64,000 nt of DNA from an uncultured Phycisphaeraceae bacterium. GTDB lineage: Bacteria > Planctomycetota > Phycisphaerae > UBA1845. The position numbers were made by a program, and so were the translations under genes. The DNA is taken from the NCBI GenBank assembly GCA_964405925.1, contig CAYOQG010000001.1:6369-70368 (forward strand). The letters are read 5' to 3'. Of the stretch, positions 35,134 to 64,000 are shown one piece after another. The notes beneath the pieces were generated by a model. The model saw nothing but the letters and a program-made list of their open reading frames with translations. It was not told where the DNA came from and did no database searches. Within the stretch, counting starts at the first letter, position 1. Each line of letters opens with the position of its first letter.

Positions 35134-36606
35134 CTACGCGGGCCGAGCATCCAGCACGTTTACGAGCTCGACGAAGTGGGCGCCTCGCTCGGCAAAGTTG
35201 GCATACGCGTCGAAACTCGGCGCGCCCGGTGAGAACAATACGGCATCGCCCCGCTTGGCCTCATTGCGGCCGAGCAGGACCCCTTCAGCGAGACCTTCAA
35301 CCTCATGGGCAACGACAGGGCGCTGGGCGTCGATGCGATCGAGAGTGGTCGCAGCTCCGCGGACCGCCCGTGCAAATGTAGCCCTCGATTCGCCGGTGCA
35401 GATCACCGCTCGGCACGACTTGGCGAGCGACGCGGCGCATACCTCCAGTGGGACGTCCTTCTTTTGCCCGCCAACGATGGCGATGATGGGCCGCTCAAGG
35501 GCGGTAAGGGCCCTCATCATCGTTACCGGTGAGGTCGATTTGGAATCGTTGTAGTAGTCCACACCGTCGATCGTTCGCACAAACTCCAGTCGGTGGGGCA
35601 GTCCCCTGAAGGTCCGCAGTACGCCACGCACTTCGGTCTCCGGTATACCTAGATGGCGGGCAACCGCCATCACACACGCGGCGTTGGCTTGGTTGTGTTC
35701 GCCGGGGACAAGCAGATCGGCTCGTGGATCGAGCGGTTGGACCCGCGTAACACGCGCCTCGTGCCGCACCGCCTGTCGCCGAATCATCCTGGCCGCCTCG
35801 GCATCAATCTCACCGACAAAGACGTGACTTTGGCAATGCAGGTCGCGGGCGATGTTCAGTTTCGTCGCCACATATCTGTCATATTCCCCATAGCGATCGA
35901 GATGATGCGGCGAGAGATTCGTGATCAAGGCGATCGGTGGTGCCCACTGAATGCGCGGCAAATCCTCGAGTTGGGCGCTGGACATCTCGAGGACGACCAA
36001 GTCGGTTGGGCGGATGCTGTTGAGGTCGGTCAGCAATGACCGACCGATGTTTCCACCCAGGTAGACGCCCGTCCAACCGGTACCGGCTGGCCGGCACTTG
36101 TCGAATACTTCCGCGAGCATCGCGCAGGTGGTGCTCTTACCGAACGTGCCCGTGACCCCGATAATCTCAGCCGGGCAACGCTCACAGAACAAGTTCATTT
36201 CGGTGCTCCAGGCGATTGAGCGGCTCTGGATAACGTGAAAGAACTCTGACTTGTCTTTGTTGACGGCCGGGTTGACGACGACGAAGTCGACCGCATCCAG
36301 ATCGCCCAGGTCGTGCCCACCGAGGTGGAACGTGAGGTCCAGGTCATGCAGCGAAGTCAGAGAATCCGCCAGCGCCTCGGGCCTCGCCTGATCAGTCACC
36401 GTGACAATCGCTCCCTGCTCCGCCAGCCATCGGGTGACGCCAACACCGCCTCCGAAGCGTCCCAGACCGACAACAAGCGCGCGACGCCCGGCTATCGAGC
36501 CCGGCCCACCACCGTTGTGGGGCACACGAAGCGACGTCGAGGCAGAAGACCGCACCATGCTGATAACCTCTCCCTGAGAAGGCACCCGTCTCGCTCTCGC
36601 GGGCAT
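35134..36606 (-). CDS. murD: UDP-N-acetylmuramoylalanine--D-glutamate ligase (canonical, three-domain)
   Basis: 490 aa. N-domain GLGRFGGGVGVTRWLAEQGAIVTVTD, P-loop GVTGTFGKSTT, and an intact C-terminal domain (FRGLPHRLEFV...YYNDSKSTSP). The true start is possibly the ATG at 36558. Confidence 0.9.
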   Translation of the reverse strand: MPARARRVPSQGEVISMVRSSASTSLRVPHNGGGPGSIAGRRALVVGLGRFGGGVGVTRWLAEQGAIVTVTDQARPEALADSLTSLHDLDLTFHLGGHDLGDLDAVDFVVVNPAVNKDKSEFFHVIQSRSIAWSTEMNLFCERCPAEIIGVTGTFGKSTTCAMLAEVFDKCRPAGTGWTGVYLGGNIGRSLLTDLNSIRPTDLVVLEMSSAQLEDLPRIQWAPPIALITNLSPHHLDRYGEYDRYVATKLNIARDLHCQSHVFVGEIDAEAARMIRRQAVRHEARVTRVQPLDPRADLLVPGEHNQANAACVMAVARHLGIPETEVRGVLRTFRGLPHRLEFVRTIDGVDYYNDSKSTSPVTMMRALTALERPIIAIVGGQKKDVPLEVCAASLAKSCRAVICTGESRATFARAVRGAATTLDRIDAQRPVVAHEVEGLAEGVLLGRNEAKRGDAVLFSPGAPSFDAYANFAERGAHFVELVNVLDARPA

Positions 36607-36975: not shown

Positions 36976-39900
36976 ATGCAAAGAGTACTTGTCGATTCGA
37001 TCCACCGCGGCAGGCGTCCCCGAAGGACCTCGGGCCTGATCAGTCTTGGCACGGCAGCCTGCGTTCTTACGATCTTGGCGCTTTCCGGATGCCCCACGTC
37101 GTCCCCGAACGGGGACGACAACGTCAACGGTAACGACAACGGAGGGACCGACGGCGATACCGGCGTGCTGGGAGGCAAGATCATCAGCTTCTCGACGTTT
37201 TTCAGCATGTCCGAGCTGGACCCCGCTGTGTCGGTCCTCTACGAGGTGACCGGCGGCCCCGACTCGATCGCTGGTTTCTACGTTCCCGTCGCCGATGCCA
37301 ACCCGGCTGCGGGTGAGACTGGGGATCGCGTGGTCGCGGCGACGTCCCTGCCCTCGACCGGTCCGAATAGGAGGTTCCAGTTCGATCCCCGGGTCGCCGG
37401 TGTTGGCTATTTCAAGGTGGGTATCCTTCTCGAGCGTGGTGATGAGACTGCGGAAGCCCTGAGCACGGGCGTCGTCCAGGTCGAGGGGCAACCAAGTCCC
37501 CGCTTCATCCGACCCGTCGCGGCTTTTGACGAGGTGCTCCAAGGGACGGAGGTCCCGGTAGCCTTCGACGCGGGTGATCCGGAGGGCGACGTTCAGTGGC
37601 GTCTGTTTTACCTGAGCGAGTCTGATTCGCAGAACAATCTCCCAGATGAGCTTGGGACACTCCTGGCCGCCGGTCGAGGGAACGTTGGCGGAGCGACGTT
37701 CTCTACGGCGGGGTTGGGGAGCGGTGACTATCAGCTTGGCCTATCCGCGACGGACAGCGGCTCGTCCGTGAGCGCGACCGTCGCCTCGGGTAACTTGGAT
37801 CGAATCATTACGGTTTTTGGACCGATCGTACGAGTGGTCGCCCAGAGCGAGATCCAGCCGCCCACCTTCCGGTTCACCGCACCCGGCAACAACGATGTCG
37901 CGCTGTTTCGAAACGAAGCGTTCACAATCCAGTTTTCCACAACGATCAACGAACCCGGGGCTAAGGCGTTAATCGAGTTGTTCTACGATAGCGACAACAG
38001 AATCACGAACGGATTTGCGAACACGATCGCACAGAACCTCGATGAGACGAGAACGTCGTTCCCGCTCCCGACTTCGGATATTCCCGAGGGAACATGGTGC
38101 ATCGGGGCAACAGTCATTACCGTGGGGGGAATCAGCGCCCCGATCACGCTCTACGCGAGCGGAAGCATTGAAATCGTGCGCAATCCCACGCTTACGGTCA
38201 CCGAGCCGGACAGTTCGCTTCCCGTCCCCCCGTCAACACCCGTGTCGATCGTGTGGGCGACAAACGCGCCAGAATCAGCGGGAACCGTCAGCGTGTTCGT
38301 GCGAACGCTGGGTACAGGAGAGAGCGCGACATTATTGTCTTCTGTGCCCCTGACCCAGACTTCGACGGTCTTCCAGGAAGAGACGTCGGGCTTATACGAG
38401 GTCACCGTTCGACTGGATTTCATTGATGCTACCCATCTCGAAAAGCAGGCGGGCGCCCTGATTCGCGTCTCCTCCCTGCCGAGAATCCTCTGGTTAGGAT
38501 CGCTTATCGATCCCGACCCGCCATTTGACGGGGCGATTTTTGGGGGTGTGAACTTCGAGGATAATGCGGGGTCAGCGCTGAGTGAAGCGGGGGACCTCGA
38601 TGGCGACGGCCATGGGGATTTCGTCATCGCTGCTCGTTATGGCAAGCCGTTCTTCCGCAATCCGTCAGGTATCGGTCAGGGTGAAGCCTATGTCATTTAC
38701 GGGGGCTCTGGCGCGGGCAGGCTGGCGGGTGAATACAACCTCAACTCCGTGGGGACCGAAACCCTCCGTGGGATAGCGTTGCCTGGCATTCCTACCGTCG
38801 ACAACACCGATGAGACCTATGGTCTGGATGGTGTTACGCTCATCCCGGACGTTGACGGGGACGGTCATGGCGAGCTGTTGTTCGGGTTCCCATTCGTCGA
38901 TTCTGCGGGGGGCAATGTGGGCCCGCTCGAGGCTGACGGCCAGTTCCGCCAGGGCGGTGTGGTCATGCTGAGCAGTAATAACAGTCTTCTGGCTGACCCG
39001 CCGATAACGGACGCGGTCATACACCTGTCAGCCGTTGGACAGACCTTCTCCGAGATGACCGTTACTCCAAGTGCCGCTAACTTGGCAGTCTTCGACGCAT
39101 GGCGGTTTGAGGGAACACAATGTGTCAACGGGACCGACGGGGTCGTCGATACGATCCACGGACCCTGTATCGGCTTTGTTTCGCTGCTTGCCCCGCCACT
39201 TTGGGAACAGGTGGGTTTTGAGATCTACACAGGTCCCGAGAGTGAGGGATTGTGCAGAACCTTCTACAACTTGGTCGGGTGTAACCAGAGTCCTGACCCG
39301 TTCTTCGAGTCGGACGCGGGTTCCGGCTTTTACCCCTCGGCAGCCGTTGCCCTGGAGCCGCGTGGGGCGCGGATCATAGGGCAGGGCGACGGTGAACGGT
39401 TCGGCATGGCGGTGACAGCCACGACTTCCCCTGATGACGGCGACCCGGGCGATCTTATCATCAGCGCTCCGGAGCGCAACGCGTCCAGCGCGTTCATCGA
39501 GGGGCTTACTGGGACTCTTTCCGACGCCGGTGTTGCGTATCTGGTCGATAACCGTTCGCTATGGTCGCGCGTTGGTAACGAGGTCCCACCAGCACCTTAC
39601 CAGTACGTGATGGGTGTCACCAGTCATTGCGGAGACAATCGCTCTGGCGGGCTGCAGGACGCCATCCGGATCGCCGGTGCCGAACGCGACAACATCCAGA
39701 ACGTCATCGGCGTGGGGGATTTCAACGGCGACGGGCGGAACGACTTTGCGGTGGGTGCACCCGGAGCCGGTGGCGGACAAGGGCGGGTATATGTCGCTTA
39801 CCGCAGAGACGAGGCGATCGAAGGGGATTTCCTCCTCAGCAAGCTTGAGCTCGATCCCGGGAACGCGGAGCGGCTGGCTGGAATGCTCATAGTGAGGTCC

Positions 39901-49430: not shown

Positions 49431-52400
49431 ATGTCTCTAACCAACACAACTTCGGCACTCATTAATGGTGTCAAAGCTCTGCCCCGCAAGATCTTTGGGA
49501 CTCGCAATGAGCGTTTGCTGAAGGTCTACCGGCGGCAGGTGGCGCCGGTCGGCGAGCTGGAAGCCGAAATCCGCCGCGATTACGATATGCGGTTGGCACG
49601 TCGACTCGAGGAAGAACACCTCGATGATCTTCCCGAAGAGGAACGCGCGTCCCGGCTTCGGGCGGTCCGCCTCGAGCTCAGTGGCGACCTCCGGCAACGC
49701 GCCGACAGGTTGCGTGAGCAAGTCAGCGGGATCATGCAGCCGCTGCATGATTGGTGGCAATCCCTTGACCCTGGTAACCGGGTCGAAGAATACTACAAGG
49801 ACGATTACCGCAAGAGAAATGCCAAGCTCATCGAGGATCTTGACGAGCAGGGCATCATGGCCGAGGTGTTCGCCGTGCTGCGTGAAGCCTCTCGCCGTGC
49901 CCAGGCCCACCGCCATTTCGATTGCCAGCTTATCGGCGGTCGTGTCCTCTTTGAGGGCCGAATCGCGGAGATGAAAACGGGCGAGGGCAAGACGATCGTC
50001 TGTCACCTGGCAGCGTTCGTCAACGTATTGTGCGGGCGCAAGGTCCATATCGTCACTGTCAACGACTACCTCGTTAAGCGTGACGCGGAGTTCGCGGCCC
50101 CGATCTTCGAGCTGTTTGGCGTCACCGTTGGCTACATCCAGGCGATGGTGGACCCCGGTGGACGCGAGGGCATTCGCCACCGTGCCTACAGTTGCGACAT
50201 CACTTATGGTACAAACAGCGAGTTCGGCTTCGATTACCTGCGTGACAATATGAAGACCCGCCTTGCGGAGCAGGTCCAGGGGCCGCTGGACTACGTCATC
50301 GTAGACGAGGTGGACTCGATCCTGATCGACGAGGCCCGAACACCGTTGATCATCTCTGGTCCCACCTCGGATGACGTCACACGATATCCGCGGGCCAACA
50401 AGGTGGCGGAAGAAATTGTCCGTCGACAGGCAACGTGGGATCGGAAAGTGGCCGCCACCGTCGCCAAGTTCGATGGGGACACCCACAACATCCCCAAACT
50501 CGAAGATGCCATGAATATCCTGGGATATAAGGAGAAGAAAGGGGCGGAACCGACTCGCAAGCAGCCCGCGCAGGCGTCGGATGACGAACCTCCCCAGGCG
50601 GATGACGGACCCCGGATGACGCTCGGGCCGGACTTCTTGATCGATGATCAGGTCGAGGCGATCCAAATCTATGAAAATGACATCCTGCGACTCCCACCCT
50701 CGGAGCAGTATCGGCGCTACTTCATCGTTCAGGCAGAGCGCAAGCAGGCCGGGATCACCCATGAGGGTGTGACGATCGCCCAGGAACTGCTCGACATCGG
50801 AAGCCTATATAGCGGTGACAACATGGAGTGGCCCCACCTGATCGAGAATGCCCTTCGTGCACATAAGGTCTACGAACGCGACAAGGATTACGTCGTCCAG
50901 GATGGTCAGGTGATCATCGTCGACCCGTTCACGGGCCGCCTGATGCACGGGCGGCAGTGGTCAGACGGTCTCCACCAAGCCGTCGAGGCGAAGGAGGGCG
51001 TCCGGGTCAAGGAGGAAACCCAAACACTCGCCACCATCACCATCCAGAACTTCGTCAAGCTCTACCCCCTCCGGGCGGGGATGACCGGTACTGCCATGAC
51101 CGAGGCGACCGAGTTCGACAAGATTTATAGACTCGATGTGGTGGAGATTCCCACGAACCGCCCCGTCAACCGCGTCGACCACAACGACAAGATGTACCGC
51201 GACACAGAGCAGAAATACACCGCGATTGTCGATGAAATTCACGAGGTGCATCGGCGTGGTCGACCGGCTGACCCATTTCTCCTTGCTGACGTATTAACGG
51301 CACTAAGAACCGTTCTTCAGAGACAGGGTGAGGACATCAGTCGAATCGATGAAACAATCCGGCAGTTCAACAACGCAGAGCTCAACGACCGCAAGGTCGT
51401 CCGGTTAATGCTCGAGACCTACGACGAAGTCATGGGCGATCTGGCTCATGGACGTCCGGTGTTGGTGGGCACCACCAGCGTCGAGAACTCGGAGAAGCTC
51501 TCCAGGTTATTGTCCCAACGGTATGGGATCGAACACGAGGTCCTAAACGCCAAGAACCACTCCCGCGAGGCTGAGATCGTCGCCAAGGCGGGCCATTGCT
51601 CCATTCCAACCAAGGGGGCGGACAAGACCTCCCGCGGCAACGTGACCATTGCCACGAACATGGCAGGTCGTGGAACTGACATCAAGCTGGGCACCGGTGT
51701 CGTCTACCCGAAGTGTCGCGTCCCCGATCCCTTGCCGGAAGGGGTAAAACCGAGCGAGCTGTATCCAACAGGGATCACCAAGTGCTGCATCAAGTGCGAG
51801 GACTATGACCCGGACACGAACTGCGGGCACTGCTTTAAGCCAAAGATCGATCCTCGCTTTCCCGAGCTTGGCCGCAAGGTTTGCACCATCAATGTCCCCT
51901 GCGGATTGCATATCATCGGGACCGAACGGCACGAAGCCCGACGCATCGACAACCAGCTCCGTGGTCGATCGGGCCGGCAAGGTGACCCGGGCTCCTCTCG
52001 CTTTTCGCTATCGCTACAGGATGACCTCCTCAAGCTCTTCATGCCGGATTGGATGCTCAAGATGATGGAGAAGCTCGGGTTCACCGACGGCTCCAGTTTG
52101 GAGGACAAACGGCTCACTAAGGGAATCGAGCGAGCACAACGCAAGGTCGAGGAGCGTAACTTCTCCACCCGCAAACATCTCCTCGAGTGGGACGAGCCGA
52201 TGGACTACCAGCGGAAGGAATTCTACACCGCTAGGCAGCGAATCCTCGAGGAACGCGATCTGCCCGGTTTGATCTTCGAGACCATCGACAACTCCATCAA
52301 CACGACACTCGATCAGTTCCTCAGCGGACAATACGACCGAACGTGCATCTGCGAATGGTGTCGCATCAACCTCGACCTGACCATCTCCGAAGACGACATC

Positions 52401-53684
52401 GACATCGACGATCTGGAATCAGCCACCAACAGCATCCGACAGAAAGCCATCGACGAGGCACACGACCAGATCCGGACTTCCCTCGGCGAGTACATCGACC
52501 CGGAGGAACCACCCAACAAGTGGGACCTCGGCGGCTTGCTGCACTGGGCCAAGCGGGCGTTCAACGTCTCTATGACTCAGAATCAGATGCGGAAGATGGA
52601 ACCGCAAGAAATCGAGGACGCCCTCCTGGAGGCGGCGAAGGCCCACTGTGAAAAGGTCGAACTTAGTGGTATATCCATCTATCTCGACCGCCAATACCCC
52701 TACCAGGCATTGGGCGAGTGGGCCCGGTCCAAGTTCAACATTGAGATCGACGTGGACGAACTCGTTGATACCCCTAAGCGTGAGGTGGCAAGCATGTTGC
52801 ACCAACGTGTCCGCGAAGCCTATCGCGAACGTGAGATCTGCTATCCGGCGGAATGGTGCGTTGAAAGCGCTTTCGGCGCGGAGGGGACGGATCACGCAGC
52901 CGCGGCTGACACCGTCATCGGCTGGGTTCGGTACAAATACCGGATCAATTGGAGGCTCGAAGAAGTCCAGAGCAAGTCGCCCAATGAACTGCGAGAACTA
53001 CTCGTGGCCTTAAACCGCGACTTCGCTGACCGCAAGCTCGAACAAGAGATTGATGAAAGCATCCAGGATAAGGACGAACAGGCCGTGCTCGAGTGGGCTC
53101 GCAAGCGCTTTGGCCCCGCCTGGAGTCAGCGCCGCTTCGAGCAAGGCAACGGTGATCTGCGCGGCGCCCTGCTCGCTCAAGGGCGGGAGATGCTACGGTG
53201 GGAACTGACCCGACTCGAGCAGTTCGTTTTGCTTCGGCTCTACGACCAAGCCTGGAAGGACCATCTGTTGGAGATGGATCACCTGAAGACTGCCATCATG
53301 CAGCGACCGCTCGGTGGTGATCAGACACACCCGCAAAGTCAGTTTGCGATCGAGGGTCGCGATCTGTTCACGCAAATGTGGGCACGCATCGCCACCCGAG
53401 TCACCGATATTATCTTCAAGGTGAAAGCCGTGGGCGGACCAGGGCAGGAAGCACCCCGAACGGATACCGCCCGACGCCTGATGGCGATGTCCTACGGCCA
53501 TGCCGACGCGACTGGAGCCGGTCTCGCCACCGCGAGTCGGGACCAAGAGGCAGCCATGCGGGCGCAAAACGTGGACGGCAAGGTCGAGACCATCCGACGC
53601 GAGCAACCTCGTGTCGGCCGCAACGCACCCTGCCCCTGCGGTAGCGGGAAGAAATACAAGCAATGCCATGGTAAAGGACAATAA
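49431..53684 (+). CDS. secA: Preprotein translocase ATPase SecA (unusually long, 1417 aa)
   Basis: Walker [73 protein letters not shown], and the C-terminal zinc finger [14 protein letters not shown]. It has large insertions relative to the roughly 900-aa SecA of E. coli. Confidence 0.97.
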
Positions 53685-53708
53685 GCGTGTGGACCCACCT
53701 GATAACCG

Positions 53709-53915
53709 ATGAATCCGCCGCATGAAAACGAAATCGACTGGACGGCCACAACCTGGGAGGGAAGCCGTCGTAGTCAGTTAGAGTATTGGGCCCAGTTGTC
53801 ACTGGACGACATCTTCGCCGCCCAGGCGGAAATGGCCGAATTCGCCCGGCGGATGGGTGCCTTGGGCAACGACGACAAGTTGCCCGCCTGCCTTCCACCG
53901 AAGGGTGAACGCTGA
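53709..53915 (+). CDS. Hypothetical small protein (68 aa)
   Basis: The ORF starts 25 nt after the secA stop. The sequence MNPPHENEIDWTATTWEGSRRSQLEYWAQLSLDDIFAAQAEMAEFARRMG looks globular. No known family recognised. Confidence 0.4.
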   Translation: MNPPHENEIDWTATTWEGSRRSQLEYWAQLSLDDIFAAQAEMAEFARRMGALGNDDKLPACLPPKGER

Positions 53916-53952
53916 TCGGGAGCTGGCAATTCTCGATCGAGGCCGGCGGGTG

Positions 53953-53985
53953 GGTGGCATGGGTCCGCCCCAAGGGGACCCCTGT
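53953..53985. repeat. Intergenic repeat family 2, copy 2
   Basis: GGTGGCATGGGTCCGCCCCAAGGGGACCCCTGT. Compare 33773..33807. The GGGTCC/GGACCC stem is retained. Confidence 0.6.
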
Positions 53986-54220
53986 AGCTGCGGTTGATGA
54001 CCCGGTCTGTCGCAGGCAGGCCGTGGAAAGGCCCGCCGATCGCCAAGGCCCGGCTTCGCCAGACCGTGCCCCCCATTCGGATCCCAGTGCAGCATCTTAC
54101 CCACCAGGCCGACGCGGACCCTACGCGCCGTCATCCCGGAGGCGCGGTTTGAATTCCGAGATCCAGCGGAATAGAATGCGCCGGTGCCCTACCAGTATCT
54201 TGCACCGAGAGGGTAAGCAA

Positions 54221-55279
54221 ATGTCCATTCAAGGCAGCTTACGCCGTATTGCGATTGCGTCCCTGCCGCTCGGTGCCTTATCCGGTCTTTCCCGCGGCGC
54301 GACGGCGCCCAACAACGAACCAGGCAATCCACCTCGTCCCTCCCGCGGCGTGGCGCCACCTGCCGTGGCAGTGGATTCCGCCGTCGAACCGGAGCTCTTT
54401 GTTGCCGAGCCACGCCACGATCCGATTGTGGAGGAGACGGAGATTCAGGTTCCAAATGATGGACTCCTCGTGCTGGCGGCCAAGGCCACCGAGCTGGGCG
54501 ATGGCCTCTGGCGCTATGAGTACGCACTCGAGAACGACAGTTCCCTTCGCGCAGTGGGGTCGTTCAGCGTTTGCTTTTGGTGCGGGGACGTAGTGAACAT
54601 GGGATTCGCCGACGCAGATGCCCACTGTGGCGACCAATACAACTGCACCGATTGGACGCCCAACATTGCCCAGCGAGGAGTCCACTGGTCCACGCTGAGC
54701 TATGCGGTCAATCCCAACGCGAACGCCCTGCGCATCGGCAGAACGTACTATTATTGGTTCGACTCGCATGCGCCTCCCTGGACCGACAGGTCCAGGGCGC
54801 AGTTCGGCCTCTTCACACCGGGGGTCCCGCAGGAACTTTGGGCGAATACCCTCGGGCCTGGAGAGCCCTGCGCCACCGATGCCGACCACGACGGCGAAGG
54901 GGACTGTTTCGATTTCTGCCCGGGCACGCCAGCGAGCGCCTGCACATGCCAGGGGTTCGGGATGTGCTGCTGGGGCTGTACGGGCCCATGTGAAGACGAG
55001 TACCCCAATGACGAGTGCGTCGCGGACGGCGGTACGCCCGACGAGTGTGGTGACCCGCGATGTAAGAACGGCTGCCCGCTCCTGGACATGGATAACGACG
55101 GAGATCGCGATCTGGCAGACTTCGCTGAGTTTCAACGCTGCTTCAGCGGCGCGTCAGGGGATCCGGGATATGTGGCACCTACGCAGGAGTGCGTGAACCG
55201 GCTGGATATCGACGAAGATCAGGCAATCGGTTTGGGCGACTACAAGCAGTTGTTCGAGCTGGGCTTGCTCGGCGAATAG
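54221..55279 (+). CDS. Secreted Cys-rich protein with C-terminal dockerin-like module
   Basis: ATG at 54221 (GAGAGGG upstream) gives the signal-like MSIQGSLRRIAIASLPLGALSGLSRGA. The C-terminus has LLDMDNDGDRDLADFAEFQRCF ... LDIDEDQAIGLGDYKQLF paired Ca-loop motifs. The upstream part of ORF 53954.. is built from the repeat element. Confidence 0.65.
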   Translation: MSIQGSLRRIAIASLPLGALSGLSRGATAPNNEPGNPPRPSRGVAPPAVAVDSAVEPELFVAEPRHDPIVEETEIQVPNDGLLVLAAKATELGDGLWRYEYALENDSSLRAVGSFSVCFWCGDVVNMGFADADAHCGDQYNCTDWTPNIAQRGVHWSTLSYAVNPNANALRIGRTYYYWFDSHAPPWTDRSRAQFGLFTPGVPQELWANTLGPGEPCATDADHDGEGDCFDFCPGTPASACTCQGFGMCCWGCTGPCEDEYPNDECVADGGTPDECGDPRCKNGCPLLDMDNDGDRDLADFAEFQRCFSGASGDPGYVAPTQECVNRLDIDEDQAIGLGDYKQLFELGLLGE

Positions 55280-55394
55280 CGGCGGAACACTGAACGTGAG
55301 CGGAGGGATGACTGCGGGGAACCGTGCTCCGCGGCGAACATGCCCACAGGCTGAGTGCGCGTCGATTGTGACCGGGCGTTTGCCATGACCATCC

Positions 55395-58300
55395 ATGCGA
55401 TCAGACAACTGGCAATTCTTCATTGACGTCGGTGGCACGTTCACCGACGTTGTCGCCCGAGGCCCCGACGGCGCGATTGTCACCCACAAACTTCTAAGTT
55501 CTGGGGCGACTCGTGGTGTGGTCGAGGGGCAGTCGCAGGGAACGTGTATAAGCGACCAGCAGCGTGCGGGTGATCCGGAGGGGTTCTGGGTCGGATATCG
55601 TGTCGGACTGATCAGCGAAGACTGCCACGGTTCTGTCGGCAAGCAAAGTAGCGACACCGAGGAGCAGGTTGCGCATGTAACGCGGTTCGAGACCGACACG
55701 GGACGACTTTGGCTTGATCGCCCTTTAACCGCGGTGGTGCCAGGACAGTCCGTCTATGAGCTGCGGAGTGAAGAAGAGGCTCCAGTGGTAGCCATTCGAT
55801 ACCTGATGGGACTGCGTCTGAACGACCCGATCGGTCCAATCGACCTCCGCCTGGGCACGACACGTGCGACGAATGCGTTACTCGAGCGCAAGGGTGCCAA
55901 GACCGCCTTCGTGACCACCAAAGGATTCGGCGACGTCCTGAAGATCGGGTACCAGGATCGCCCCGAGCTCTTCGTCCTCGACATCCACAAGCGCGATGAG
56001 CTGGCTGGCTGCGTGGTCGAGATCGATGAGCGTATCAACGCCACAGGGCAGGTGCTCCGGCGACCGGACGAGAGCGCCATCCGTCAGCGGCTCCAGAAGC
56101 TGCCGGAGTCGGGGATCGAAGCCCTGGCCATCTGCCTTCTGCATGCCCACCTGAACCCCGCTCACGAGGAGATCGTGGCGTCCGTCGCGGCGTCGGTGGG
56201 GTTCTCGCACGTCTCCGTGTCTTCGCGTGTTGCCCGAATGGAGAAGATCGTGCCACGTGGTGACACGACGGTTGTGGATGCCTACTTGGGACCGGTCATC
56301 AAAGACTACGTCGGAACGCTTCGTCGATCCCTCCCCGAGGCTCGTCTCAGACTTCTGACCAGCAACGGCGGATTGGTCGACGCGGACAGCACGGCAGGTA
56401 AGGACACGATCCTGAGCGGACCAGCCGGCGGTGTCGTTGGCTGCCGTCACGTTGCTCACCAGGCCGGTTTTCTCAAGACCATCGGGTTTGACATGGGCGG
56501 GACCAGCACGGACGTGTCACGGGTCGACGAACCACCGAATGATCTGGAATACCAGCACGAAACGGTCAAGGCCGGCGTCCGCATCATGGCACCCATGCTG
56601 GCCGTCGAAACCGTGGCAGCCGGCGGTGGGAGCATCTGCACGTTTGACGGTCAGAAGCTGGTCGTGGGACCCGAAAGCGCCGGCGCTGATCCGGGACCAG
56701 CCTGCTATGGCCGGGGTGGTCCACTGACGGTCACTGACATGAACCTCTATCTCGGGCGGATCGTCTCCCAGTACTTCCCCTTCCGACTCGATCGCCACGT
56801 CGTCGAGCGGAAGCTGACGGCACTTTGTGAGAAGGTCAATATAGACACGGGCTCCGACCTTCGCCTCGTCGACCTCGCCGAGGGGTTCATCAAGATCGCC
56901 AACGCCAACATGGCTGCCGCCATCAAGCGAATCTCGATTGCCAAAGGTTACGACGCTCGCGAGTACGCGCTGACTACCTTTGGAGGCGCGGGTGCCCAGC
57001 ACGCTTGTGCCATCGCCCGGGGACTTGGCATCTCGCGTGTTCTTTGTAGCCCCTTTGCTGGGGTCCTCAGTGCTGTCGGTATTGGTGTCGCGGACGTCAA
57101 ACGGATCGGTCAGCGCAGCGTCCACCATCGACTCGAGCCACAGGCCGATGTCGCACTCGACCCCAGGTTCGAGTCGCTCACCGCGGAGCTGCGTGAAGCT
57201 CTGATAGCCGATGGGACGCGAGCGGACGCTCTTTCACCACCAGTGCGGACGATGGACCTCTGCTATGTGGGACAAGCCATGCTCCTCACCGTGCCGGCGG
57301 AGCCTTTGGAGGAGGCACAGTCTCGATTCGAGACGCTTCACCGCCAGCTCTACGGCTACTGTCACGTGGATCGTGCGATTGAGATCCGTACCATCCGTGT
57401 CGAGCTGGCTGCGCGTACAGAGCATTTGCCCATTCAATGGACACCGGGTGGAACATCACAGGGATCAAGACCGCGGGTGACCACGATGATCCTGGACGGT
57501 AAGCCGACGACCGTTCCACTGTTTATCCGCGGTGAGCTCTACACCAATCAGCGCATTACCGGACCCGCTGTCATTATCGAGGACACTTCCACCATCGTCA
57601 TCGACCCGGGTTGGGAAGCCACCATCACCGAACATGGTGACGTTATACTGACAGACGCCCACACTGAAACCGGACAAGAGCGGATCGGCACCGATGTCGA
57701 CCCGATCCAGCTCGAGTTGTTCAATAACCAGTTTGCCTCCATCGCCGAGCAGATGGGAACGACGCTTCGCCGGACGGCACTCTCCGTAAATGTCAAGGAG
57801 CGACTCGATTTCTCTTGTGCGATCTTTACACCCGAAGGCGAGCTGGTCGCCAACGCCCCCCATATCCCCGTGCATCTCGGTGGTATGAGTGACTGCGTTA
57901 AGGCACTAATGGAGGACGTGGACACGTTGACACCCGGCGACGTCTTTATCACCAACGATCCTTATCGCGGCGGGTCGCATCTCAACGATGTCACGATCAT
58001 AACACCCGTCCATGATGACGCCGGTACGACACTTCTGTTTTTCGTCGCCAGTCGGGCGCATCACGCCGAGATCGGCGGAACCAGACCCGGGTCCATGCCC
58101 CCCGACTCGACGTCGCTCGCCCAGGAAGGCGTCGTCATTCGCGCCTTCCCGTGGATCCGCGGGGGAAAGCCTCAGCACGACCGGCTACGAGCTCTTTTGA
58201 CCGCCCCGCCCTACCCGTCGCGTGCCCCGGATGAGAACCTGGCCGACGTGTCTGCGCAAGCGGCAGCCAACCAGACCGGTGTGCGCGAACTCAAAGCCAT

Positions 58301-59285
58301 GATCGACAAGTATGGTCTCGACGTGGTCCACAGCTACATGCGGCATATCCGCGACGCGGCGGAGCAAAAAATGCGCCGTGCCCTTGCCAGACTGCCGGAT
58401 GGTGTGCGTGAGTTTCAGGATCGATTGGACGATGGATCGCCCATCCGATTGGCGCTGAGCATCCACGGCGACGAAGCGATGCTCGATTTCTCGGGAACGG
58501 GGGGCGTTTTGCCGGGTAATCTTAACGCCAACCGGGCGATCGTAACCAGTGCCGTTTTGTACTGTCTGCGATGTCTGATCGACGAAGATATTCCGCTAAA
58601 CGCTGGCGTTCTCGCACCAGTAAGGATTACACTGCCCGAGTGTTTGCTGAACCCGCCGGCGATGGCCGATCCCGCAAAGTGCGCCGCCATGGGAGGCGGA
58701 AACGTGGAGACCTCGCAACGGATCGTGGACTGCATCTTCGGAGCACTCGGGACCGTCGCCGCCAGCCAGGGAACGATGAACAACGTGTTGATTGGACATG
58801 AAGCACTTAGCTATTACGAAACCATCTGCGGTGGGGCGGGCGCGGGACCCGGATTCGACGGAGCCGACGCTGTACACACCCACATGACCAACACGCGCTT
58901 GACAGACCCAGAGGTGCTCGAAGCCCGTGTTCCCCTGCGACTCATTCGATTCGCCATCCGACACGGCTCAGGCGGAAAGGGCCGGTACCGCGGCGGTTGC
59001 GGGGTGGTACGTGAATTGGAGTTTATGGAACCATTGGAAGTGTCAATCATCAGTCAGCGTCGCACGACGTCACCCTACGGGCTGCAAGGCGGCGGCCACG
59101 GCCAACCAGGGCAAAACCTGCTGCTGCGACGAGGGGCAAACCGCGCAAAGGTGCTTTTGCCCACCGTTTTGGCAACCGTCTTTCCAGGTGACAGGCTTAC
59201 GATCGAAACGCCAGGCGGTGGTGGTTGGGGTACGCCTCTAATCAACACCGAATCCACCCACTGCGTGGGGGCGACTGCCCCATGA
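55395..59285 (+). CDS. Fused hydantoinase A / hydantoinase B family enzyme (ATP-dependent 5-oxoprolinase type, OPLAH-like)
   Basis: 1296 aa. The N-terminus [16 protein letters not shown] is the hydantoinase/oxoprolinase N-terminal signature. Also present are [12 protein letters not shown] and the hydantoinase B half ([20 protein letters not shown] ... [14 protein letters not shown] ... GGGWG). The length matches single-chain 5-oxoprolinases. Confidence 0.88.
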
Positions 59286-61060
59286 ACCCACGGATCACCT
59301 CGATTGAGAATCTGGTCGCCAGCGACCCCGGTGGACGCAATGTTTTTGGCCTGGTGCAGAGGGATCAGCTCCGACTGGCTGCCCAGTCGCTGAGGCTTGC
59401 CAGACGTGTTGCCATCGTAAGCGGGTTCTTCATCCGCGAAGCTGGTGCCGGTGAGACCGATGGTCCTCCTGGTGCGAAAGTGCTGGGCAACGCCCTTTCA
59501 TCGCTCGACATCGAGGTGGACTACATCACCGACGCCCCTAACGCACCGCTGTTTAAGGCCCTGGGCCTGAGACCCATCACCGACGTTCACGACTACCTGG
59601 ACAAGGCTCAACCAACGCACATAGTGTCGATCGAGCGGGTTGGTCGTGGGCATGACGGACGGTACCGCAACATGCGCGGACAGGACATCACCGACGTGAC
59701 CGCTCCCCTTGATGAGCTGTTTACAGAAGCCAGCCGGCGCGGTCTGACAACCATTGGCATCGGGGACGGCGGTAATGAGATCGGCATGGGCAAGGTCTTC
59801 CCCGACACGCTGTCTACCATTGAAAACGGGCGAACCATCGCTACTGTCGTCTCGACAGACTTTTGTATCGCGGCTGGCGTGTCCAACTGGGGTGCTTACG
59901 GTTTGACCGGCGCCTTGTCCGTCTTCGCAAGCCGCGATCTTCTGCCATCAGCGAAAGAGGCTGCCAGGGACATCTATCGGATTGTACGGGAGGGTAACGC
60001 CGTTGACGGTGTGACACACAAGAGCGAACCGACGATCGACGGTGTCGAGCTGGCAGCCAGCCTGCGAATGCTTGAGAGCATCCGGCGACATATCGCCCCC
60101 TCGCCTCTCGAGAGGGGAGAGCCGCTCATCGTTGGTGTGCTCGGTTACGGCAGAACGGGCCGGGCTGCCGCCGCCTTGCTTGCCGAGCACGGTCACCGCG
60201 TCTGCATCTCCGATGAAGGACCGGTCACACTCGAGCCAGGCACAATCGCAGCAGGGGTCGAAACGGGTGGACATAGCATTGAATTCCTCAGCGCGTGTGA
60301 CCTGATCGTAAGGAGCCCGGGGGTGCCGGCAGACAGCCCCATTCTGGATGCCCTTCATCGCCGAGGCATACCGGTGATCAGTGAATTGGAGCTCGGTTAT
60401 CAGCTTGGCGTCCAGACTTCACCTTGGCGACCGTCTCCGTTGATCGGCGTGACCGGCACGATTGGAAAACGAACGACGGTTCAATTGATGCAGCGGGTCT
60501 TTGCCTCCGCCCAGCGACCGATGAGGATCGGTGGAAACAGGGGCGAGCCGCTTTCTGCCCTTCTCCCCCAGCATCGGTCGGGAGGCCCCGTCGCCATCGC
60601 TGTATCCAGCTTTCAGTTGGAGACCGTCGTGCACTTCCGTCCGGACATCGCGATTTTGCTCAACGTGGACGAGGCCCATCTGGATCGCCACCGTTCGATC
60701 GCCGAGTACGTACGAATCAAGAGTCGGATTTTCATGAATCAAAACCCGGACGACGCCCTGATCCTGCCTTTCGATGATCCGCGCATGCGCATGCTGGCGC
60801 GTAAACACCACGGTCGGACGTTTTTCTTCTCCACGCGACAGGCGGTGGACCGCGGCGCGTGGCTCGTTGACGGAACCATCCGGTCGAATGTAGACGGAGC
60901 CATAGAAACAGTCGGCCCGGCCGATCCAACGTTCCCAGACAATGTGCTGGCAACCGTGATCGCGGCCCGACTCAGCGGGTTGGACGGGGGCCAAATCGCC
61001 CGGGCCATGGAAGACGAATCCCGAGCCACCGGGCCATCCGACCCGGATGCAGACGTGTAG
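59282..61060 (+). CDS. Fusion protein: N-terminal DUF4392 (D-glutamate-cyclase-associated domain) + MurD-type ligase N-terminal and central ATP-binding domains, lacking the Mur ligase C-terminal domain
   Basis: ATG at 59282 overlaps the upstream TGA (ATGA). The DUF4392-like part has GETDGPPGA, GIGDGGNEIGMG and AGVSNWGAYGL. The MurD-like part has VGVLGYGRTGRAAAALLAEHGHRVCISDEG, P-loop GVTGTIGKRTT and NVDEAHLDRH. The protein ends at the domain 2/3 boundary (VLATVIAARLSGLDGGQIARAM...) with no GLPHR / DSKxTN region. Confidence 0.8.
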   Translation: MNPRITSIENLVASDPGGRNVFGLVQRDQLRLAAQSLRLARRVAIVSGFFIREAGAGETDGPPGAKVLGNALSSLDIEVDYITDAPNAPLFKALGLRPITDVHDYLDKAQPTHIVSIERVGRGHDGRYRNMRGQDITDVTAPLDELFTEASRRGLTTIGIGDGGNEIGMGKVFPDTLSTIENGRTIATVVSTDFCIAAGVSNWGAYGLTGALSVFASRDLLPSAKEAARDIYRIVREGNAVDGVTHKSEPTIDGVELAASLRMLESIRRHIAPSPLERGEPLIVGVLGYGRTGRAAAALLAEHGHRVCISDEGPVTLEPGTIAAGVETGGHSIEFLSACDLIVRSPGVPADSPILDALHRRGIPVISELELGYQLGVQTSPWRPSPLIGVTGTIGKRTTVQLMQRVFASAQRPMRIGGNRGEPLSALLPQHRSGGPVAIAVSSFQLETVVHFRPDIAILLNVDEAHLDRHRSIAEYVRIKSRIFMNQNPDDALILPFDDPRMRMLARKHHGRTFFFSTRQAVDRGAWLVDGTIRSNVDGAIETVGPADPTFPDNVLATVIAARLSGLDGGQIARAMEDESRATGPSDPDADV

Positions 61061-61063
61061 ATC

Positions 61064-61876
61064 ATGCAGATACCTGAGTTTAATGCTGACAGCCTGGCAC
61101 GGGCGTCGGGTGCGCAAGTCCGGGCTATGTGTCGTGCCGGCAGGTTCAACCGGCCCACCACGGGCACCGCACTCGGGTACACCCAGGCCAACCTCGTCGT
61201 CTTGGGCACCGACGCTGCACGAGATTTCGGGCTGTTCTGCCGCTTGAATCCTAAGCCCTGCCCACTTCTGGAGGTCACCCGACCCGGACAATACGAACCG
61301 GTCGAGTCGGCACCGGGTGCCGATCTGCGGACCGACTTGCCGCGTTATCGCGTGTATGAACGCGGGGTTTACATCGACCGGCCCACATCGATCGAGTCGT
61401 ACTGGGATGACAATTTAGTGGCGTTTCTTATTGGCTGTTCATTTACGTTCGAGTCCGCGCTCATGGAAGCGGGGATTCCTGTCCGACACATCGAGGAAGG
61501 CTGCAACGTCCCCATGTATCGCACGAATGTGACCTGCGAGCCGGCTGGTCCCTTCTCCGGCCCCTTGATCGTTTCCATGCGACCGATGACACCCAAGCAC
61601 GCGGTAGAAGCGACACGAATCACCCAAGCCTTCCCGCGCGCGCACGGGGCGCCCGTACACGTCGGCCATCCCGAGAATCTTGGGATCGCGGATTTGGACT
61701 ACCCGGACCACGGGGACGCTGTCACCATTCATTCCGATGAGATCCCTGTCTTTTGGGCCTGTGGCGTCACCCCGTTCGAAGCCATCATGAATGCCAGGCC
61801 GATGCTCGCGATTACGCATGAGCCGGGTCACATGTTTGTCACCGACATGCTCGACACGTCGTTGCGGCAGAGGTAA
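61064..61876 (+). CDS. DUF1445 / UPF0317 putative hydro-lyase (YcsI-like; D-glutamate cyclase catalytic-domain homologue)
   Basis: 270 aa. It is near-collinear with YcsI-type proteins as I remember them: GYTQANLVVL, FCRLNPKPCPLLEV, LVAFLIGCSFTFE, AGIPVRHIEEGCNVPMYRTN, GPFSGPLIVSMRP, HGAPVHVG, PVFWACGVTP and ITHEPGHMFVTD. It starts 3 nt after the upstream stop. Confidence 0.88.
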   Translation: MQIPEFNADSLARASGAQVRAMCRAGRFNRPTTGTALGYTQANLVVLGTDAARDFGLFCRLNPKPCPLLEVTRPGQYEPVESAPGADLRTDLPRYRVYERGVYIDRPTSIESYWDDNLVAFLIGCSFTFESALMEAGIPVRHIEEGCNVPMYRTNVTCEPAGPFSGPLIVSMRPMTPKHAVEATRITQAFPRAHGAPVHVGHPENLGIADLDYPDHGDAVTIHSDEIPVFWACGVTPFEAIMNARPMLAITHEPGHMFVTDMLDTSLRQR

Positions 61877-62154
61877 TCAAGGGCTAGCTGAGGTTGACAG
61901 AGCAACGGCCTGCCCTCATCTGGTGCATCCGCACGACAGAGCCCCCTGGAGCACCGGCGCCCCGCGCCCGATTGCACAAGTCAGTCCGTTAGACCAATCC
62001 GACTCTCCTCCCTCTCTGTCTCGTTCATAGCAGCATTAGCGACCCCGATCTCCCCGTGCCAAGAATGCGACCGACGCTCGTATACACCTGTGAACAGCGA
62101 CCAACGGGGTCGCAATCAGACGACAAGACAAGAACTGCGAAAAGGAGAAGAAAA

Positions 62155-62235
62155 ATGGACGTCATCGACCATTTCCTGCGACCAGTTGTGGATTTCGGGG
62201 CATGGATTGCCGGTCATTTGACCTCGCTGATCTAA
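62155..62235 (+). CDS. Candidate 26-codon small ORF (MDVIDHFLRPVVDFGAWIAGHLTSLI)
   Basis: ATG at 62155 is preceded by AAAAGGAGAAGAAAAA (AAGGAG about 8 nt upstream, the same SD type as dnaA and the PEGA lipoprotein gene). It is below the ORF-track length cutoff. A strong hairpin lies 50 nt downstream. Confidence 0.3.
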   Translation: MDVIDHFLRPVVDFGAWIAGHLTSLI

Positions 62236-62284
62236 GCCATGAAGGACCAACAAAACCAAACCACTGGCCGGCACAAACCGCACT

Positions 62285-62319
62285 GAGGAGTCCGAGGTCG
62301 CTGAGACTTCGGACTCCTC
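62285..62319 (+). terminator. Strong hairpin (11-bp perfect stem) downstream of the sORF, with no U-tract
   Basis: GAGGAGTCCGA (62285..62295), a 13-nt loop, then TCGGACTCCTC (62309..62319). Confidence 0.35.
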
Positions 62320-62534
62320 AAAGCAACCGCACACCTTCAGCAAGCGGCGAGTCAGACCTTCCTCTTCTGTCGATCCTCACACGACCTTTAGCAGGGAATC
62401 TCGCAACGGCCACGTGGAATGCTCAGGACCGCACCAGTTCAGCATTCTCCAAACTCGCACGGCACAAGTTCCCTTAAGATGCCCACCAGGGGAGACAGAG
62501 TGGGATTGAGCGATACACAGATTCACAGTGCGCT

Positions 62535-64000
62535 TCAATTCTTCGATCGGTACGGTTGATGCTGCCGAAAGAGGTTCAAACGCCGATTGAGCTCGGATGT
62601 CATAATATAGTCACCACGTGCTTCCGCAAGAGCCAACGCTCGATCAGCCGTCTCAATGGCGTCTGCAAACTGACCGGCCTCTGCGTAGGCGGTGGCCAGC
62701 GTCATCATGCTGGGAAGGTGCTTACCTCCACGACGCCTGTTCACGTACAATGCCCAGCGTACAGCCTCCTGACCGTCGCGTATCTCGTCGTCCGGGTAGG
62801 ACGCCAGGAGATCGGCGAGAAACGCGCTTAACTCGAGTGCTCCTGGGTTGTCCCTGACACCTTGACGGAGAACCTTGACCGCGTCGGCCACGTGCCCTGT
62901 CCGCACCAAGCCCTGGGCCAGCAGGAGACAGGCGCGGTCACGATGGGGATCAACGACCAGGGCACGCAAATACAGGCGGATGGCCGCGTCGGTGTGGCCG
63001 GACATCCTCTGGAGATCGGCGAAATGATGCAGAGCAACCGCATCGTACGGCTTCAGCTCCAACGCTTTTTGATAATGCTCCGCCGCTTCCTGCAGCATCT
63101 GTGCGCGGATCAAAGCATCGGCGTAGTTGGTATGGGCGATCGCACTCGCGGGGCTCACCTTGACGCCCCGCAACCACAACGTCCGGCCGGAGAGCCAGAT
63201 GTTCGCCTGGGCGAAGGTTTCCCGGGCAAGGACAGCCAATAACACCGTACACGTCAAGATCAGGATTGCGCGTCCGTTGGGACGACCACACCAGCCAGGC
63301 CGGCGCAAAAGCCAATACAGAGCCCCACCGCCCAGCGCCGCGAGAACCAAGCATGAAAGGTAACTGTACCGATCCGCCACAAGCTGTGGGCCACTCTGAA
63401 TGAATCCTGCTACGGGAAGAAGAACCACTCCGTAGACGGCGAAAGCCGCAAGCAAAAAAGGCCACCGCCGACGCAGAGCGAAGGCGAGAAGAGCGGCAAC
63501 CACGATAAACACGACACTGCCCCAAAGCATCGATCCAAGCAGAACCTCACGCGGCGGGACTTCATAAAGCGGGCCCAGGTTCGTCGGCCACACGGTTTTC
63601 CAAACATAGAAAGTCAACCCGTAGAATGCTTGGGCCACTCGCGCCCAGATATCATGCTCTGTGAGCGTATACAACGCACCGCCCTCGCGACGGGCGTTGT
63701 AGGCCCGGACCCCCGCTGCCACCGCCAGCACAAGAAACGGAATCTTGTCCAGCCAGACCCAGGTCCATCGGCTTGCCACGAGGGCTTCCCGCTCACCTGT
63801 TGGAGTGCGTGGTGCGGGTACGTCGACGGGACCGCTGCCTTCCGTCATTGAAACCGGCAGGCCCACATTAGACTTTCCGACCCGTCGCAACGGATAGCGA
63901 TCGAGAATCAACAACACAATGGGGAGCGTGACCGCTGACGCCTTGGCGAGCAGCGATAGCAGACAGGCAACGACCGCTCCCCCATATGCCCACCAGCGGA
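62535..64000 (-). CDS. Membrane protein with C-terminal TPR repeats (PMT/TMTC-like glycosyltransferase architecture), 5' end outside the window
   Basis: The reading frame stays open from 63917 to the window edge (…RWWAYGGAVVACLLSLLAKASAVTLPIVLLILDRYP…). It has multiple TM helices followed by TPR units (AAEHYQKALELKPYDAVALHHFADL..., AIRLYLRALVVDPH...). Confidence 0.75.
   Translation of the reverse strand, partial: RWWAYGGAVVACLLSLLAKASAVTLPIVLLILDRYPLRRVGKSNVGLPVSMTEGSGPVDVPAPRTPTGEREALVASRWTWVWLDKIPFLVLAVAAGVRAYNARREGGALYTLTEHDIWARVAQAFYGLTFYVWKTVWPTNLGPLYEVPPREVLLGSMLWGSVVFIVVAALLAFALRRRWPFLLAAFAVYGVVLLPVAGFIQSGPQLVADRYSYLSCLVLAALGGGALYWLLRRPGWCGRPNGRAILILTCTVLLAVLARETFAQANIWLSGRTLWLRGVKVSPASAIAHTNYADALIRAQMLQEAAEHYQKALELKPYDAVALHHFADLQRMSGHTDAAIRLYLRALVVDPHRDRACLLLAQGLVRTGHVADAVKVLRQGVRDNPGALELSAFLADLLASYPDDEIRDGQEAVRWALYVNRRRGGKHLPSMMTLATAYAEAGQFADAIETADRALALAEARGDYIMTSELNRRLNLFRQHQPYRSKN

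Follow-up and report, generated by a model that had tools for sequence, protein, structure and literature searches.

A Phycisphaerae operon linking a fused HyuAB protein, D-glutamate-cyclase-type domains and a truncated, probably non-catalytic MurD

The mammalian mitochondrial enzyme DGLUCY (C14orf159) is a D-glutamate cyclase (EC 4.2.1.48) of two domains, DUF1445 and DUF4392, and the mouse protein, which turns D-glutamate (D-Glu) into 5-oxo-D-proline, is the sole assayed member of this two-domain family (Ariyoshi et al. 2017, PMC5339696). In bacterial pxp operons, such as ycsF-ycsG-ycsI-kipI-kipA of Bacillus subtilis, DUF1445 (ycsI) is encoded with an ATP-dependent 5-oxoprolinase (PMC10448178), and PxpABC is, as cited in that paper, an experimentally established 5-oxoprolinase. 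The DUF4392 fold is known from TON_0340 of Thermococcus onnurineus (PDB 4dwz and 5gl2-4), which has a RecJ/DHH-like fold with a di-Mn site of six invariant acidic residues and is a weak, non-specific Mn-dependent phosphatase, inactive as the E59Q and D157L mutants (PMC5132392). Both domains are widespread, occurring in many bacterial 5-oxoprolinase operons and in human DGLUCY, and have no established bacterial function. Here, a three-gene operon is described from a 64,000-nucleotide stretch of DNA of an uncultured Phycisphaeraceae bacterium (assembly GCA_964405925.1, contig CAYOQG010000001.1, positions 6,369 to 70,368), which is referred to as the window. The operon encodes a fused HyuA/HyuB protein, a DUF4392 domain followed by a truncated MurD, and a DUF1445 protein. 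It is tentatively read, at somewhat less than an even chance, as a Phycisphaerae operon for glutamate and 5-oxoproline, most likely the D-enantiomer, in which a non-ligase, MurD-derived ligand-binding or docking head would couple the balance of the two to the demand for wall precursors.

The three genes are packed together on the plus strand. Gene 1 (55395..59285, 1296 aa) encodes the fused HyuA/HyuB protein, as identified from its open reading frame (ORF) and Pfam matches. Gene 2 (59282..61060, 592 aa) encodes DUF4392 followed by MurD domains 1 and 2, and gene 3 (61064..61876, 270 aa) a DUF1445/UPF0317 'putative hydro-lyase', the D-glutamate cyclase N-terminal-type domain. Genes 1 and 2 share an ATGA stop/start overlap (59282..59285, plus strand), and the TAG stop codon of gene 2 (61058-61060) is separated from the ATG of gene 3 (61064) by the 3-nt spacer ATC (61061..61063, plus strand). 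These coordinates and junctions are as claimed in an earlier account of the window made from its letters alone (the sequence-only reading). In a mechanical ORF list the longest gene 2 ORF begins at TTG 59225. However, in the homologue alignment all gene 2 homologues start with MNPRI(T/A)SIENL, matching ATG 59282, which is therefore taken as the start. Genes 2 and 3 share one reading frame (61064-59282 = 1782 = 594 x 3), and loss of the stop codon would therefore yield a fusion like those found in six relatives. The next gene downstream, encoding a tetratricopeptide repeat (TPR) protein (62535-63917, minus strand), is convergent, and thus the operon ends after gene 3. A scan of positions 53600-62700 for sigma-70 promoters and terminators found sites no commoner than in shuffled sequence and is uninformative on whether there is a single transcript; the presumed promoter region, the 115 nt upstream of gene 1 (55280..55394, plus strand), holds no above-chance signal. 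Similarly, no riboswitch and no other RNA came out of an Rfam search covering the window from end to end or of a permissive scan of the sequence ahead of gene 1. The tight coupling of the genes is borne out by the junctions, the adjacency of the genes across loci and the six gene 2-gene 3 fusions.

Chance does not account for the arrangement: dozens of species-level Phycisphaerae genomes have this gene order, with gene 2 products that share 58-78% identity with that of the window. Close homologues of gene 2 number more than 120 (57-84% identical), and all the named ones come from Phycisphaerae or Planctomycetota metagenome-assembled genomes (MAGs). In a scan of one genome per species, the DUF4392-MurD fusion was found at 34 loci and at one further locus cut inside the gene (L044). 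These loci are labelled as Phycisphaerae, unclassified Planctomycetota or uncultured bacteria, with one Deferrisomatales-labelled MAG. Stand-alone DUF4392 was found in the same scan in Methylomirabilota/Rokubacteria, Chloroflexota, an uncultured bacterium (L038), Gemmataceae and Planctomycetaceae. The arrangement is specific to the Phycisphaerae, or to part of them. Neighbourhoods were read by tblastn of the window proteins against the loci, and counts were made over informative loci: hyuAB lies directly upstream of gene 2 at 28 of 34, DUF1445 directly downstream at 18 of 31, and all three genes occur in order at 16 loci, usually with secA in front. Co-conservation of the three genes is apparent from these counts and from the six fusions. 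At loci without DUF1445, no alternative conserved partner was found downstream of gene 2, and two complete genomes without an adjacent DUF1445 were not among the best 120 gene 3 homologue matches.

The fusions help to separate the core of the module from its additions. Six homologues (P0002, P0003, P0011, P0012, P0020 and P0090; 864-945 aa) join gene 2 to gene 3 through differing linkers of 25-80 aa that are of low complexity and have pLDDT <50 in a model of P0002. The DUF4392 domain was also searched against 1.84 billion representatives, and Pfam was then run on the matches. One relative (P0124, 59% identical) is a DUF4392-DUF1445 fusion without any MurD part; its start overlaps the end of hyuAB by 4 nt on contig L058, and the product of that hyuAB is 63% identical to gene 1. 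Another (P0128) has a more degenerate MurD-like head, and neither hyuAB nor DUF1445 adjoins it. Because the sister lineage of P0124 has hyuAB and DUF4392-DUF1445 without the head, the comparison argues that HyuAB, DUF4392 and DUF1445 form the conserved core, to which the MurD head was added as an accessory between the two cyclase-type halves.

Both domains of the DGLUCY-type cyclase are present in the operon, here on adjacent genes, as had been proposed from the sequence. The DUF4392 (GLUCM-like_C) domain of gene 2 spans residues 8-268 (59303..60085, plus strand; PF14336, 4.7e-76), and its nearest solved relative is TON_0340 (E 4e-36 to 1e-35). The two have the same fold and the same six-residue di-metal site, although TON_0340 is a stand-alone protein. 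The acidic site is whole in gene 2: E58, D60, E118, D162, E166 and D253 align with the TON_0340 ligands E59, D61, E115, D157, E161 and D246 and are invariant in both homologue alignments scored. Gene 3 matches PF07286 (DUF1445) at 1.2e-67, NCBIfam NF003969 'putative hydro-lyase' at 396 bits (cut-off 324), and the PDB entries 3db9 (E 1e-83) and 2pif (E 1e-81). An AlphaFold model was made of the fused relative P0002 (pLDDT 81.9, pTM 0.67; linker and parts of DUF1445 at low confidence). The model gave a TMt of 0.87 to TON_0340 and of 0.82-0.86 to 2pif and 3db9, and it superposed on MurD 3lk7 over 313 columns, about two thirds of 3lk7, with a root mean square deviation of 2.6 A. At the level of a predicted structure, this confirms all three folds. 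Overall, the cyclase-type parts look catalytically intact from their residues. The likeness to DGLUCY thus extends to both domains, which are fused in six relatives, and to the six DUF4392 metal ligands, and a link of the operon to D-Glu and 5-oxo-D-proline is likely on this comparison. In contrast to DGLUCY, the operon has DUF4392 first and uses two genes, with a MurD-derived two-domain head between the halves and an ATP-dependent ring-opener alongside.

Gene 1 has the HyuA/HyuB (OPLAH) 5-oxoprolinase build that the sequence-only reading had recognised, a single chain in the range of about 1200-1300 aa in which each of the three Pfam domains clears its cut-off by a wide margin (Hydant_A_N 8.6e-47, Hydantoinase_A 1.5e-89, Hydantoinase_B 4e-200). 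No NCBIfam equivalog is matched above cut-off, the top model being caprolactamase alpha at 344 of the 1000 bits required. The best PDB match is 7hk5, a 1288-aa 'N-methylhydantoinase' (E 1.5e-132, 447 bits). A DUF1445-linked fused HyuAB from Paraburkholderia is far closer to gene 1, at 45% identity over 1200 aa and 962 bits. Relative to that homologue, gene 1 has an insertion of about 70 aa in the HyuA N-terminal region (residues 36-103). In related Phycisphaerae loci, tblastn matches to gene 1 begin at residues 1-6 and are full length, and the N-terminal region including the insertion appears common to these loci.

The substrate of gene 1 is best judged from the company kept by DUF1445 and DUF4392 elsewhere. 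In annotated plasmids and chromids of unrelated bacteria, DUF1445 lies inside pxp (PxpA/B/C) clusters of Klebsiella, Paracoccus, Bacillus badius and Lactiplantibacillus. The Pseudoalteromonas pxp cluster also has DUF4392, in the order glycoside hydrolase family 3 (GH3), DUF1445, PxpA, DUF4392 and class IV aminotransferase. In Paraburkholderia largidicola, DUF1445 is followed by a major facilitator superfamily (MFS) transporter and then a 1210-aa fused HyuAB, and in Azospirillum it lies between RidA and gamma-glutamyltransferase (GGT). Altogether, six of nine sampled DUF1445 loci adjoin a 5-oxoprolinase of either kind. Additionally, P0182 and P0196 are fusions of DUF4392 with the PxpB domain PF02682. 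Because DUF1445 and DUF4392 travel with two non-homologous ATP-dependent lactam openers, gene 1 is likely a 5-oxoprolinase and the module likely handles glutamate and 5-oxoproline. This link, already drawn by the sequence-only reading, is supported by what appears to be non-homologous replacement of the 5-oxoprolinase. The Phycisphaerae operon differs from the pxp operons in using the unrelated HyuA/HyuB (OPLAH-like) type, in having no NRAMP transporter and in having the MurD head.

DUF4392 has other partners as well. Across P0182, P0196, P0249, P0177, P0221, P0232, P0250 and P0257, it is joined to PF02682 or to a glucosamine-6-P isomerase / 6-phosphogluconolactonase domain, or lies embedded in a giant protein of 2500-5400 aa. 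Stand-alone DUF4392 adjoins pyridoxal phosphate (PLP) enzymes in several phyla (L040 10001-12243; L049 5102-8681; L051 6866-9416). For instance, it occurs with a class III aminotransferase of overlapping start in Rokubacteria and beside alanine racemase and RidA in Paraburkholderia, and in Bradyrhizobium a SelA-like protein is flanked by two DUF4392 paralogues.

The remainder of gene 2 is derived from MurD. A MurD-like N-terminal (UDP-binding) domain occupies residues 284-366 (60131..60379, plus strand; PF21799, Pfam match 286-366), and a degenerate Mur ligase central (P-loop) domain residues 390 to about 575 (60449..61006, plus strand; Mur_ligase_M match 390-522). This part matches PDB 3lk7 at E 1e-33 to 1e-34. 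The murD model TIGR01087 is matched over positions 2-297 of 441 only, at 185.3 bits and thus below the cut-off of 211.95, Mur_ligase_C (PF02875) is missing, and the protein stops at the MurD domain 2/3 boundary. The earlier description of gene 2 as DUF4392 plus MurD-type domains was therefore right as to the types, but only two of the three MurD domains are there. The head was aligned to Escherichia coli MurD in PDB numbering, and residue states were counted over 122 homologues; residue roles follow PMC9780078. The equivalents of GxGxxG, SPG, GGN, the P-loop Lys, His183 and Lys198 are kept. On the side of UDP-MurNAc-L-Ala (UMA), G14 is kept in 119, G17 and S71 in 120, and D/E35, P72, G73 and N138 in all 122, with G137-N138 of the GGN motif among the UMA-side residues kept in 98-100%. 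K115, T/S117, H183 and K198 are likewise kept in 122 of 122 members of the main family.

In contrast, much of what catalysis uses in MurD has gone. E157, the Mg ligand in the E-x-S-S motif, has been replaced by Ala in 121 of 122 homologues and by Ser in the other, and S116 by Arg in 121, so that the P-loop reads GKR(T/S) and departs from the GxxGK(S/T) rule. The D182 equivalent is mostly Ala, and that of N268 is lost. The canonical MurD of the window keeps both S116 and E157. In MurD, the entire D-Glu site and some of the ATP site lie in domain 3 (residue list in PMC9780078), and along with this domain R302, D317 and K319 (ATP) and T321, K348, S415, L416 and F422 (D-Glu) are missing. The P0128 lineage retains the UDP-side motifs but has Arg in place of K115, Ala in place of H183 and Leu in place of K198. 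Since ATP and Mg residues and domain 3 are lost, the P0128 lineage is further decayed and one lineage is headless, the head is probably non-catalytic and not a ligase. It looks like a MurD-derived module for ligand binding or docking. The MurD-like adenylating or ligating step proposed by the sequence-only reading is not supported by these observations. Mur ligases, moreover, form acyl phosphates and not adenylates.

A canonical three-domain murD (MurD-like_N, Mur_ligase_M and Mur_ligase_C) lies outside the operon at 35134..36606 on the minus strand, where it had been placed before. The accompanying view of gene 2 as an extra, specialised murD copy is not supported. A recent duplication of the genome's murD was considered as the source of the gene 2 head and ruled out, the two being 29% identical. 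The canonical gene is outside any division and cell wall (dcw) cluster, its neighbours being an FG-GAP repeat protein (36976-40776) and unannotated ORFs. In its product, the equivalent of Asp182 is His, a position tied to D/L-Glu selectivity in studies of MurD2.

Several features of the operon set it apart from described systems. The component families are known already, and many annotated genomes show DUF1445 paired, for reasons as yet unexplained, with a 5-oxoprolinase. What is new is a MurD-derived head with the signature GKR(T/S) + A-V-S-S inserted in a D-glutamate-cyclase-type enzyme, and a HyuAB-type opener in a D-glutamate-cyclase setting, in an arrangement confined to the Phycisphaerae. 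No system with this arrangement was described in the literature searched, in line with the earlier statement that none had been characterised, and full-text searches found no bacterial study of DUF1445, DUF4392 or a DUF4392-MurD fusion. A functional parallel is that of MurD2 and MurL of Xanthomonas, where a missing glutamate racemase (MurI) is bypassed by means of a MurD relative and an ATP-consuming step that fixes the D configuration (PMC8788868). However, MurD2, unlike the gene 2 head, has all three domains of a complete ligase and takes L-Glu as its substrate, and MurL, which is unrelated to the operon proteins, epimerises a nucleotide-bound dipeptide and not a free lactam (PMC8788868). 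MurL was also considered as a relative of DUF1445 or DUF4392 and was ruled out, as it has no known domains.

In the mechanism proposed for the operon, HyuAB would open the ring, converting 5-oxoproline, ATP and 2 H2O to glutamate, ADP and Pi. DUF4392 and gene 3 would form a split D-glutamate-cyclase-type enzyme that is ATP-independent and uses a di-Mn/Mg site, and for which the known direction is from D-Glu to the lactam. The MurD head may still recognise a UDP-MurNAc-peptide, most likely UMA, the substrate of true MurD, and its binding could couple the balance of D-Glu and 5-oxo-D-proline to cell-wall precursor demand. The substrates, the sensor role and the enantiomer are inferred from domain content, context and residue loss. 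In E. coli, the glutamate racemase MurI is activated by UMA, and a head that acts as a sensor would parallel this activation. Net flux may either supply or remove D-Glu. No MurI homologue is listed for Phycisphaera mikurensis, Phycisphaera sp. TMED9 or Phycisphaeraceae TMED231, and most planctomycetes are listed as MurI-less (PMC5885031 Table S3). Because Phycisphaera and Phycisphaeraceae are among those listed, D-Glu economy is a plausible selective issue in this lineage.

A number of observations weigh against this interpretation. If a cyclase and an ATP-driven opener work on a single enantiomer, the result is a futile cycle in the absence of gating or racemisation; a sensor domain would supply just such gating. 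Only some of the Phycisphaerae carry the fusion and most other MurI-less planctomycetes are without it, and therefore the module is not a general planctomycetal answer to the D-Glu problem. An adjacent DUF1445 is missing from about 40% of loci, and hyuAB from 6 of 34. Among the UMA contacts, L15, T36 and R37 are variable over the 122 homologues, and the complete conservation of K115, T/S117, H183 and K198 in the main family is more than pure binding seems to need, so that phosphoryl transfer of some kind may persist.

With these reservations, the operon is a clear, testable lead, drawn from comparative sequence data, on how bacteria manage D-Glu and on a pair of widespread DUFs. The MurD domain between DUF4392 and DUF1445 is the most direct genomic pointer so far to a bacterial role for them in peptidoglycan D-Glu. 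The source of D-Glu in MurI-less Planctomycetota, Verrucomicrobiota and Chlamydiota has been addressed so far only by the moonlighting DapF of Chlamydia (PMC5885031), and the operon is a concrete, cloneable three-protein candidate for this question in one lineage. The comparative data also predict bacterial 5-oxoprolinases, possibly D-specific, within this HyuAB subfamily. If the coupling proposed above holds, a Mur ligase cut down to its substrate-binding head would be an enzyme turned metabolite sensor for its own substrate. A bolder version, in which MurI-less Phycisphaerae make or reserve their peptidoglycan D-Glu by a lactam route, with the cyclase-type pair and an ATP-driven 5-oxo-D-prolinase interconverting 5-oxoproline and D-Glu and with UMA switching the flux through a dead, MurD-derived sensor, is considered unlikely. 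If true, it would add a third way of supplying D-Glu to the two known from MurI/Dat and MurD2/MurL, and would give DUF1445 and DUF4392 their first physiological role in bacteria.

Alternatively, the operon could drive synthesis of D-Glu from L-Glu at the expense of ATP. L-Glu would cyclise to 5-oxo-L-proline, one of the two cyclase-type domains would racemise the lactam or cyclise with inversion, and HyuAB would open 5-oxo-D-proline with ATP and so make the conversion one-way from L to D, with the head as an allosteric switch that turns production on as UMA accumulates. The reported lack of MurI homologues in Phycisphaera and Phycisphaeraceae and the physical tie of the operon to a MurD-derived domain are consistent with such a pathway, and MurL provides a precedent for ATP-dependent, one-way L-to-D conversion in peptidoglycan synthesis (PMC8788868). 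Ring opening uses ATP and the cyclase does not, so that the pair would be sensible as a driven pathway, and the acidic di-metal site of DUF4392 could stabilise a carboxylate enolate. However, this scheme commits the operon to the anabolic direction and to new racemisation chemistry. Neither domain has known racemase activity, and the assayed relative makes 5-oxo-D-proline from D-Glu (PMC5339696). The Pseudoalteromonas context, with GH3 and a class IV aminotransferase, looks catabolic, most MurI-less planctomycetes have no such module, and DUF1445 is often not adjacent, as noted above (about 40% of loci). Synthesis of this kind is rated unlikely.

In a catabolic or salvage role, the cyclase-type pair would turn D-Glu or gamma-D-glutamyl peptides, released by peptidoglycan turnover or taken from necromass, into 5-oxoproline, and HyuAB would open this to glutamate for general metabolism, with the MurD head as a safety catch that stops destruction of D-Glu while wall precursors await it. 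The activity known for the family, from D-Glu to 5-oxo-D-proline, fits such a role. The GH3 and class IV aminotransferase of the Pseudoalteromonas cluster, the RidA-DUF1445-GGT order of Azospirillum, a Paraburkholderia region with GGT and, further on, DUF4392-alanine racemase-RidA, and the occurrence of DUF1445 in pxp operons of heterotrophs all point in this direction. In the Phycisphaerae operon, however, no transporter or peptidase is conserved and the conserved neighbour is the housekeeping gene secA. Conversion of 5-oxo-D-proline to L-Glu would also require a further racemisation step. Salvage is rated improbable.

The conserved K115, H183 and K198 raise a further alternative, in line with the ligating step of the sequence-only reading, namely that the head remains an active, acyl-phosphate-forming MurD-like ligase. 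The cyclase-type domains would then replace domain 3 and hand over D-Glu from 5-oxo-D-proline, and the complex would be a lactam-using alternative MurD or a maker of another glutamyl conjugate of a UDP-linked acid. DUF1445 begins where MurD domain 3 would start in the six fused relatives, T/S117 and N138 are also conserved throughout the main family, and it would make thermodynamic sense to couple the unfavourable opening of the ring to a ligation driven by ATP. In contrast, E157, which the MurDs of E. coli and of the window share, is replaced by Ala in all but one homologue, S116 is Arg, the N268 equivalent is lost, and the ATP and D-Glu residues of domain 3 are all missing. The linkers to DUF1445 are long, variable, of low complexity and of low pLDDT (<50), unlike those expected of a fixed domain replacement, and HyuAB would be redundant. 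Additionally, the P0128 lineage is without K115, H183 and K198, and the P0124 lineage without any MurD part. It is the perfect conservation of the three residues in the main family for which residual catalysis is kept under consideration, as a distinctly improbable reading.

Lastly, it is very unlikely that the module acts on something other than glutamate and 5-oxoproline, with HyuAB using another lactam, a hydantoin or a ketone, the head binding another UDP-linked compound and the DUF domains acting on an unrelated small phosphorylated or cyclic molecule: HyuAB substrates are many and gene 1 matches no NCBIfam equivalog above cut-off, TON_0340 gave weak phosphatase activity only and has no physiological substrate assigned, and DUF4392 also partners class III aminotransferase, SelA-like and glucosamine-isomerase proteins, but DUF1445 and DUF4392 are independently tied to PxpABC by adjacency and fusion, and the mammalian two-domain enzyme acts on D-Glu.

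Other features of the window include dnaA (4642-6093, plus strand), which lies beside a resistance-nodulation-division (RND) efflux operon on the opposite strand. The replication origin may be close, although a coarse GC-skew profile gave no clear switch. SecA (49431-53684, plus strand) is unusually long, at 1417 aa, with a C-terminal SEC-C/SWIM-like motif. Its gene is kept as the neighbour on the upstream side in most of the related Phycisphaerae loci, some of them without hyuAB and DUF1445. Between secA and hyuAB, the window has a 441-aa ORF (53954-55279, plus strand) without a Pfam or NCBIfam match. In its translation, a stretch resembling a signal peptide comes after an internal Met, and the C-terminal half is rich in Cys and Asp. 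This ORF is missing from all related loci, where the gap between secA and hyuAB is about 100-160 nt, and it therefore looks like a lineage-specific insertion of a gene for a secreted protein.

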